Shown one piece after another: positions 1,759 to 3,676 of a DNA stretch of 64,000 bases; the stretch's first letter is position 1; every line of letters starts with the position of its first letter. The notes beneath the pieces are model-generated. The model ran no database searches. It was given only the letters and a program-made list of their open reading frames with translations, and was not told the DNA's origin. Source of the stretch: Lama guanicoe (Eukaryota). Location of the stretch: positions 4,868,071-4,932,070 of the forward strand of contig MU053810.1 of NCBI GenBank assembly GCA_013239625.1. Reading direction: 5' to 3'. A program made the translations under genes and the position numbers.

Positions 1759-2647
1759 CTGTGAGAAGTTAAATAGAACACGGTCAGTATTAGTCAGATT
1801 CGTCACCGCTTTCAACAAACAATGCCAAACTCATGGAAAAGACAGGCACAGAACAAAATGTGAAAGCCAAACTCAAAAACAATAGAACACAGTGGATAGT
1901 CAGAGCTCACAGAGATGCAAGCTGCACCACAGAAAGCCACCGCCATGAAAGGATGCTGTGAATTGTAGGCAGAATCAGCTCAATGATAGGGATGGCAAAG
2001 GAGCCCTGTACTAAACGAAACAGAGACACTAGGGTTGATAAAATTAGCCAAGTGTTATGTCTAGCAATAAAGCAGCTCCAAGACCTTTTGAAGAATTGCA
2101 CCATGTACCACATCCTGTATCTGAAACTGATACACAATGTAGAACTTTTAAGATTATTGGCTGCCCTTGCTACAAATTTGAGACACTTATACTTGGTGTA
2201 ATGAGGTTGATTTTTGTCAGACTGTCAATCTTGAATTTTAGAAGCATCTACTTATGCGTAGATAACCCTGCTGCCGGGTCACTTTGGTTTTATGTTGAAT
2301 GATGCTGACCTCTGTGCTTTGGAGCCCCGTTTCACGTCTGTGCAGCCAGGGATCCTTTTGACTAGTTAGAATTGCTACCAGTTTGGCCATTATCTACTAA
2401 CAAAGGCTATTATGGAAATGGAAAAATGGAGAGCATAATTTCACTGTCTGGCAAAAACTCAGGGTATACAAGTATAAAAGAGGGTAGGAAGGGGCTAGCA
2501 CTCTTCAGAACAACACCAATTTTGAAATTTTCTCCTTTGAACTTCAGGGAAATGGATTTTCAAAATTAAATGAGCTGAGCCCCATGCCACGCCCCTTTCA
2601 ACACATGGCTCAATGCTTTTATGACTTTAAGAACTGGTAGACCATAC

Positions 2648-2668
2648 CATGCTATTTCTCCTCACGGT
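2648..2668 (-). other. ARHGAP21: Candidate alternative 21-nt stop microexon (DREEK*)
   Basis: ttctgctgtttcttgttatttctgaagcag|ACCGTGAGGAGAAATAGCATG|gtatgg. Confidence 0.5.
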
Positions 2669-3348
2669 CTGCTTCAGAAATAACAAGAAACAGCAGAAAA
2701 ACTTTTAAGAAAGTAGCAGTGATCTGTTGACAAGCATCTTGAGAGAAAATGGACACCACAGATCAACTTGGCTGGCATTTACAAGAAGCGGGGGTTTCTG
2801 CAGACAAGGCAGCTGCAGTGGGGACAGCAGCCCTCCTTCTTCCTACAGTTCCAGCTGTCCATCAGGGACACCACGGAATCCACTAGCGACATTACCGTGT
2901 GATAGACTCCTCCCATCTCACCTGGGCAACATCAGTACAGATTTGCCTGTGTCAGTAATGCTGAAAAAAACCCTTTAGGACTAAAGCAAGAACTAGAGGG
3001 AACCAAGGGAGAACACGGTGTCAGACGACATGCTAGGTTAGTGCAACAGGCTGGCAGGAGACAATCTGCATCGGAAGAGCCTACAAAACCTAATACTTTA
3101 ACCGAAACATTAGGGCGGCAATTAGAAAACAGAAGACTGTCAAAGAAGATCGACTTGTGCGATGACACCTGTGGTGACAAGTAATACACTGTATATTATG
3201 GAAACGGTGCCCGGGAGCATTTCGCGTATTCCACTTGCTGCTGCTTTAACAGAACGTCCAGCTTGAGCATCAGAACTACTCATACAGCCTAGACCACACT
3301 TTCTGCCATCACAGCAACCACATACTCAGTAGCGTTCATCTGTTTTAC

Positions 3349-3372
3349 CTTGTGATGACTATTACATGGAAA
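3349..3372 (-). other. ARHGAP21: Candidate alternative 24-nt stop microexon (VSM**)
   Basis: Long pyrimidine tract ending ttcacag|TTTCCATGTAATAGTCATCACAAG|gtaaaa. Confidence 0.55.
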
Positions 3373-3676
3373 CTGTGAATTTAAAGGAAAAAAAAGAAAG
3401 AAAGAACGAAACAGTGGTTTGCATGCTCATTTCCCCGCGTATTTCCTTTCTGACAAGCATTACAACTCCATGCATTGCCAATGGCTTTTAGTCACTGGAA
3501 GATGATTAAGATCCATCAGAAAAGGGAGATTAAGTTCTTTATCAGTGGAAAGGAAGAAAAAGGAGGGGGGAAAAATCACAGTGAATTGTTAACTTAGGAC
3601 TGAGTTTTGCTCTTTCACGTTATAAGAATTTAGCTTTTAAAAACCTAGAGATTAATGCTGCCCAGGCAAGAGTTAC

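Follow-up and report, generated by a model that had tools for sequence, protein, structure and literature searches.

Stop-bearing exons in intron 24 of camelid ARHGAP21 probably form an ancient neuronal cassette for swapping the C-terminal tail

The window analyzed here, a 64,000-nt stretch of DNA from Lama guanicoe, raises the question of whether one intron of a RhoGAP gene can, by including exons with their own stop codons, replace the long C-terminal tail of the protein in mRNAs that evade NMD. The minus strand of the window encodes camelid ARHGAP21, and a camelid RefSeq protein matches it exon by exon at 83-100%. Intron 24 (3676-1759, 1918 nt) is flanked by exon 24 (3677..3782), which is 106 nt long here and in the human and mouse tables and ends in phase 1, and by exon 25 (1727..1758), whose length of 32 nt is also that of its counterparts in human and mouse ARHGAP21 and ARHGAP23. 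By translation, the 42-nt exon 23 (4111..4152) holds the end of the RhoGAP region. These features, like all elements of intron 24 described below, are on the minus strand. The exon order was read from the sequence itself, and the numbers 24-26 are those of a first-pass annotation of this DNA. A Pfam search placed the PDZ, PH and RhoGAP domains upstream of the intron 24 stops, where they would be retained, and found no domain in the tail that would be lost, in agreement with the first-pass proposal of a RhoGAP protein minus its long C-terminal tail.

The last coding exon starts at G000:C1724:4867326 in the neighbouring contig, approximately 745 nt beyond the window start, and is a single open frame of 563 codons that begins with GSWGSG and has a basic RKRKK cluster near its start. 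Its length equals the tail of the RefSeq protein P0242 and its frame matches camelid RefSeq tails. Exon 25 is accordingly the penultimate coding exon, as the first-pass annotation had assumed. Many ARHGAP21 entries of 1406 residues were set aside, because they are internal-deletion isoforms with a normal C-terminus and hence no truncations. In the salmonid models P0020, P0076, P0080, P0087, P0090 and P0103, GNG stands in place of the exon 25 peptide before the last exon. Intron 25 contains a short tRNA-like, SINE-looking insertion with an A-run (window ~820-900, plus strand), recognized by eye.

The length of exon 25 sets the NMD geometry of the stops in intron 24. Each distance was counted from the last base of the first stop up to the junction of exon 25 with the last coding exon and was read against the 50-nt NMD rule, as given in the accessible parts of PMC13676984 and PMC13078869. 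Within intron 24, 490 AG..GT candidates of 3-60 nt were found and 8 survived a crude splice-site filter, among them both microexon A (24 nt) and the 24-nt form of microexon B. The two stop-carrying triplet lengths reported earlier, 24 and 21 nt, were recovered with their stops in frame: A is 24 nt and B is 24 or 21 nt. The stop lies 45 nt from the last junction in A and 36 nt in B, as had been calculated; a further figure of 42 nt falls away, because it belongs to a second stop of A that translation would not reach. Joint inclusion would place the first stop at 66 nt (A plus the 21-nt form of B) or 69 nt (A plus the 24-nt form).

A metagenome scan yielded three loci for comparison. L007 carries the whole intron and comes from a distant amniote, probably a bird or a reptile; L008 is an ARHGAP23-like locus, probably of a fish; and L009, a chance bacterial-like match, was dropped. 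In a control region (window 9000-3660), the window and L007 have 8 blocks in common, every one of them on a coding exon. Three further shared blocks lie in intron 24, at 3380-3291 (which contains A), 3049-2374 and 2012-1815. The intron is collinear with L007 and, in an own-genome search with common words skipped, matched only itself, in keeping with the earlier view that it has no recognisable TE.

Microexon B is a real exon. Its donor at 2648 pairs with three acceptors, giving exons of 21, 24 and 274 nt, of which the 24-nt form (2648..2671; ADREEK*) and the 21-nt form (2648..2668; DREEK*) arise from a tandem AAG/CAG acceptor. The 21-nt exon of the first-pass annotation thus belongs to a set of three exon forms that share this donor. 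B is identical to L007 at 23 of 24 bases, with 37 of 40 matching upstream and 14 of 14 downstream. In the available tables of PMC7821500, mouse intron 24 has 30 reads for the 21-nt form, which is annotated in Ensembl, and 16 for the 24-nt form, which is listed as novel; the zebrafish ortholog, with 37 reads, is 24 nt long and ends in TAG-CATG. Junction reads are thus on record for B in two species, and its length, phase and stop are kept from fish to mammals. The camelid B likewise ends in TAG-CATG, the 4 non-coding bases past the stop completing a GCATG (2652-2648) that abuts the donor and is invariant among the camelid, L007, mouse and zebrafish. Both mouse B forms fall in the cluster named 'Excluded' in embryos, where B has 46 reads vs 357 for the ARHGAP23 exon discussed below (PMC7821500). 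The 21-nt form is marked non-NMD by an independent rule-based annotation and significant in adult brain in the accessible tables of PMC13078869. With its stop less than ~50 nt from the last junction, B is predicted to escape NMD.

B shares with SRRM3/4-type microexons a length of 3-27 nt and deep conservation (L007, mouse and zebrafish), and a TGC is found at 2695-2693, 22-24 nt upstream of its acceptor. Microexons of this type have a UGC near upstream of the acceptor and depend on SRRM3/4, and neural microexons typically insert residues without ending the frame. A and B, unlike typical frame-keeping SRRM3/4 microexons, carry stops. No ARHGAP21 row was found in 12 of the 19 supplement files of an SRRM4 study (PMC7935315).

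The third acceptor of the shared donor gives the long cassette exon C (2648..2921, 274 nt), the event that has been quantified in brain and that the first-pass account of the intron missed. Its equivalents, the human exon chr10:24590205-24590479 (274 nt) and a mouse exon of 275 nt, agree with it in length and in their 106- and 32-nt flanking exons. The coding part (2779..2921) consists of 47 residues, 6 of them cysteines, followed by TAA. Comparison with L007 gave 11 synonymous and 3 non-synonymous codon changes in the coding frame, against 1/12 and 2/11 when either alternative frame is read, and third positions take 11 of the 15 changes; the lack of coding constraint that marks poison exons was thus not found in C. 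The stop of C is 163 nt before the last junction, and the 50-nt rule consequently predicts NMD. A possible inner donor (2783-2777), which lies over the stop of C and is kept in L007, would yield an exon of 139 nt. Translation would then end within exon 25 at 19 nt before the last junction, which makes this donor a candidate source of an NMD-escaping cysteine tail, although the RNA data examined gave no sign of its use.

Database proteins show which elements have been modeled. From the best 120 of 1702 and of 635 hits, with no more than 15 members per cluster, 608 proteins were fetched, of which 488 bear the junction, a set enriched for exon C by design. C is entered by 19 of the 488 (mammals, birds, lizards and tuatara), and 18 of these end at its stop; many are Ensembl or projection models and hence non-independent. 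One of the 19, P0305 (1435 aa), derives from a 4837-nt Logan contig and runs from exon 24 straight into C. Among the same 488 proteins, none has the B-peptide ending and one has the VSM ending expected from A. The ESM Atlas gave no usable match for the exon-C peptide.

The splicing data considered are published values for mouse, human and zebrafish, with no camelid junction read among them; camelid RNA runs are on record, from tissues other than brain where a tissue is given. In the available tables of PMC11390650, C has a PSI of 0.13-0.57 in five neuron sets vs 0.003 in astrocytes, and after KCl it falls from 0.22 to 0.055 in human and from 0.57 to 0.17 and from 0.40 to 0.17 in mouse. Those of PMC13078869 show that the PSI of C in mouse rises from 0.10-0.13 at E11 to 0.24-0.30 at E18, when C is also present in long reads (E18.5), and reaches 0.82-0.83 in adult cortex, 0.77 in frontal lobe and 0.69-0.72 in cerebellum, compared with 0-0.26 in 17 non-neural tissues; the TPM of the gene in adult brain is 29-72. 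In these data the event is neuronal. Judging from the table format, the published PSI values probably pool the long and short forms through their shared junction. A human event at the donor of C with a shorter 5' end is also listed (PMC11593658, in part). Elsewhere in ARHGAP21, a second, in-frame cassette of 30 nt (28368-28339, minus strand) also shows neuronal enrichment, and KCl strongly reduces its inclusion in both human and mouse (PMC11390650, same tables).

These values bear on whether C makes protein or removes mRNA. The main rival reading is a poison-exon cluster, in which C, together with A+B or D combinations, would send the mRNA to NMD in neurons and lower the amount of protein, with short forms as by-products. 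In its favour, poison exons typically have very highly conserved DNA, and activity-dependent skipping would quickly raise protein. Poison exons place their stop over 50-55 nt ahead of the last junction, as C and A+B do and A or B alone do not, and rule-based annotation labels C NMD_in for both human and mouse, a label under which it is also listed for an earlier study (PMC13078869, available tables). Against this, the steady-state PSI of C in adult brain is ~0.8 at the above expression level, its changes are mainly synonymous, and cycloheximide altered its inclusion in human iNeurons by +0.013 (p 0.61; PMC13078869), a null result from one data set with low baseline inclusion in which the gene level fell. 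C is likewise absent from the CHX list that a different study compiled, with 0 matches in 12 of its 13 supplement files (PMC11188260). Given that, in addition, the paralogous ARHGAP23 exon is included at a PSI of ~0.9 within escape distance, we consider the poison-exon explanation unlikely.

The corresponding intron of ARHGAP23 in the same genome contains a 23-nt microexon (L004:7571-7593) that encodes ADLLEI*. A 32-nt exon follows it here too, and its stop is 35 nt from the junction at the end of that exon. Like B, it lies in the equivalent intron in phase 1, consists of six codons followed by a stop and precedes a 32-nt penultimate exon; B and this exon match at 12 of 23 bases only, so that we infer a common origin from where the exons and their stops lie and from their phase. 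According to the accessible part of PMC10249030, ADLLEI is the C-terminus of UniProt isoform Q9P227-2. Like the ARHGAP21 event, the ARHGAP23 exon is neuron-enriched and lowered by KCl: its PSI is 0.64-0.98 in five neuron sets and 0.027 in astrocytes, and decreases from 0.89 to 0.59 and from 0.91 to 0.70 (PMC11390650, available tables). The tables of PMC13078869, as far as these are accessible, disagree on its fate, with NMD as the label for mouse and non-NMD for human. ARHGAP23 differs in having a single microexon, with no counterpart of C or D detected in its intron by tblastn or blastn, and in that its exon is the major neuronal form, whereas the short B forms of ARHGAP21 seem minor in embryos. 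L008, the probable fish locus, has in a similar position a candidate 25-nt microexon (L008:1734-1758; AEPVEQPL) without its own stop, which would frameshift the next exon; the contig ends before that exon. A TDP-43 preprint (bioRxiv 10.64898/2026.10.07.757366) describes an ARHGAP23 cryptic event in passages that carry no coordinates, and the event was left aside. No functional study of the ARHGAP23 microexon was found in the literature.

Microexon A (3349..3372) encodes VSM followed by TAA TAG. It is weaker than B as a real exon. Its support among protein models is a single owl-monkey RefSeq entry, XP_064224668.1, whose C-terminus is VSM, and it is absent from the mouse microexon list for intron 24, where both rows are B (PMC7821500, available tables). 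The block around A (3380-3291) is 75% identical to L007 (E 7e-8). Both splice sites are kept in L007, but A is 25 nt there and lacks an internal stop; the resulting frameshift would bring a stop within exon 25 at a distance of 19 nt from the last junction. A truncation within escape distance is thereby kept and the peptide is not. Conservation of A as a stop-bearing exon thus holds for its splice sites and fails for its stop. At 45 nt, A is close to the NMD threshold and is predicted to escape.

The first-pass annotation had proposed that A or B alone gives a stable mRNA and that A and B together trigger NMD, which would make the intron a choice of one or the other. The distances on which this rests hold, 36-45 nt for either exon and 66-69 nt for both, and A has its one RefSeq model. 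Joint inclusion found no support: no A-B junction was seen in any source examined, so that the gate is a matter of arithmetic; the mouse list for this intron has B only, and in L007, whose A has no stop, A+B would act differently. Such a gate is therefore highly unlikely. That both microexons merely reflect noisy splicing within a conserved regulatory region, giving no meaningful protein, is harder still to accept. The few B reads in embryos and the nearly unannotated A with its non-conserved peptide would fit, and for A noise is plausible, but in zebrafish B has the same length, phase and stop, and the paralogous exon of ARHGAP23 is the major form in neurons.

Noise is also plausible for element D (1907..2010), a candidate exon near-invariant between the window and L007. 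They are identical at 100 of 102 bases, and neither change alters the peptide of a hydrophobic frame of 34 residues, which is in phase in the camelid and in L007 although the acceptors differ. Alternatively, D could be a 100-nt cassette with a possible donor at 1911, after which exon 25 would supply the stop, at 19 nt before the last junction. The peptide occurs in 4 unspliced database ORFs, 3 of which share the same stop; a further match, P0609, was an unrelated repeat protein and was dropped. Evidence for splicing of D was found in none of the annotations seen and in 0 of the 488 junction-bearing proteins. Pfam gave no family for D, and its fold is no better than that of shuffles (z -0.6 and 0.3). 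From its sequence, D may be an extra exon and could equally be a regulatory element.

Other conserved features of the intron may bear on regulation. An RBFOX-type TGCATG (3469..3474) has a TGCATG at a similar place in L007, and a block at 3029..3042, ~110 nt upstream of the acceptor of C, combines a QKI-type or branch-point-like ACTAAC with an RBFOX-type GCATG, both kept in L007. Among the motifs listed in the first-pass annotation, TGCATG (3474-3469), GCATG (3426-3422 and 3033-3029) and ACTAAC (3042-3037) stand; the fourth GCATG lies at 2587-2583, one base from the position given, and the fifth, at the end of B, was missing from the list. Three of the 5 GCATG have a counterpart in L007. Their number alone is no significant excess over chance, the mean in 1000 simulated introns being 2.15 (P ~0.06). 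Directly 3' of the shared donor, a hairpin is predicted (2476..2598), both arms of which are conserved in L007; it gave z-scores of -3.5 and -3.3 in a window picked around the stem, and the main stem shows no compensatory change. No conserved base pairing over long range was found between any of A, B, C and D that would point to mutually exclusive choice.

Taken together, intron 24 of ARHGAP21 is probably an ancient neuronal cassette of conserved, stop-bearing exons that swaps the C-terminal tail. Its stop exons would likely end ARHGAP21 after the RhoGAP region and replace the 574-residue tail by a short one. The short forms are predicted from their sequence to escape NMD because, with a penultimate exon of 32 nt, their stops come to lie within 35-45 nt of the last junction, and the long form would be translated, neurons degrading it only weakly or tolerating it. 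The microexon would be older than the ARHGAP21/23 duplication, with C added upstream of it in the ARHGAP21 line. Given that ARHGAP23 has a like exon at a like place, neurons likely make shortened forms of both proteins. Such PDZ-PH-RhoGAP proteins would lack the disordered tail and the basic RKRKK cluster, C would add a cluster of cysteines as a potential site of lipidation or metal binding, and the altered location of the GAP and a return of new transcripts to full length on neuronal activity are further predictions. No detection of a truncated ARHGAP21 protein was found in the literature. The fuller version of this reading, in which ARHGAP21 and ARHGAP23 of mature neurons are mainly tail-less, C evades NMD, although all rule-based pipelines class it as poison, and has a lipidated or metal-binding tail, ARHGAP23 retains the older microexon, D supplies a hydrophobic tail and activity restores full length within hours, is tentative, and we would hesitate to assume that all its parts hold together.

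ARHGAP21 has been studied as a 1958-residue protein and is dosage-sensitive (pLI 1 in the accessible table of PMC13078869). If ~80% of adult cortical transcripts stop after exon 24, C-terminal antibodies and tags would miss the main neuronal form, as would the interpretation of last-exon variants, and the listing of C as an NMD target for splice-switching would mislead. A paralog-shared, activity-regulated tail swap on two RhoGAPs would be a direct, testable link from depolarisation to the control of Rho/Cdc42, and C is a clean test of the reach of the 50-nt rule in neurons.

No paper describing the cassette or its function was found in a search that had subscription journals and preprint supplements outside its scope, and a term search of the accessible part of PMC12626424 gave 0 matches. 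C, the 21-nt form of B and the ARHGAP23 exon are already annotated or in supplementary tables, A has one model, and the 24-nt form of B is called novel in one table. The cassette is a real, ancient and under-described case of a known class. It is similar to Cltc microexon 33, a rodent- and muscle-specific penultimate exon for which NMD escape and the peptide were shown experimentally (PMC13676984, in part), in being a tissue-specific microexon near the 3' end with a stop <50 nt from the last junction and a shorter C-terminus; in contrast, the ARHGAP21 event is vertebrate-wide, neuronal and third from last, removes ~570 residues, and its escape is predicted. It also resembles the 'alternative C-terminal length' class (PMC13247117, in part), whose members are regulated, often neuronal, and move the stop without NMD. 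That class is defined by frame shifts, whereas the lengths of A and B are multiples of three and each brings its own stop, and its main text, in the part available, does not name ARHGAP. With the neuronal poison exons described in the accessible part of PMC13078869, the cassette shares conservation, brain enrichment and, in C, a stop >50 nt upstream. Unlike them, C has 47 constrained residues, a PSI of ~0.8 and no response to cycloheximide.
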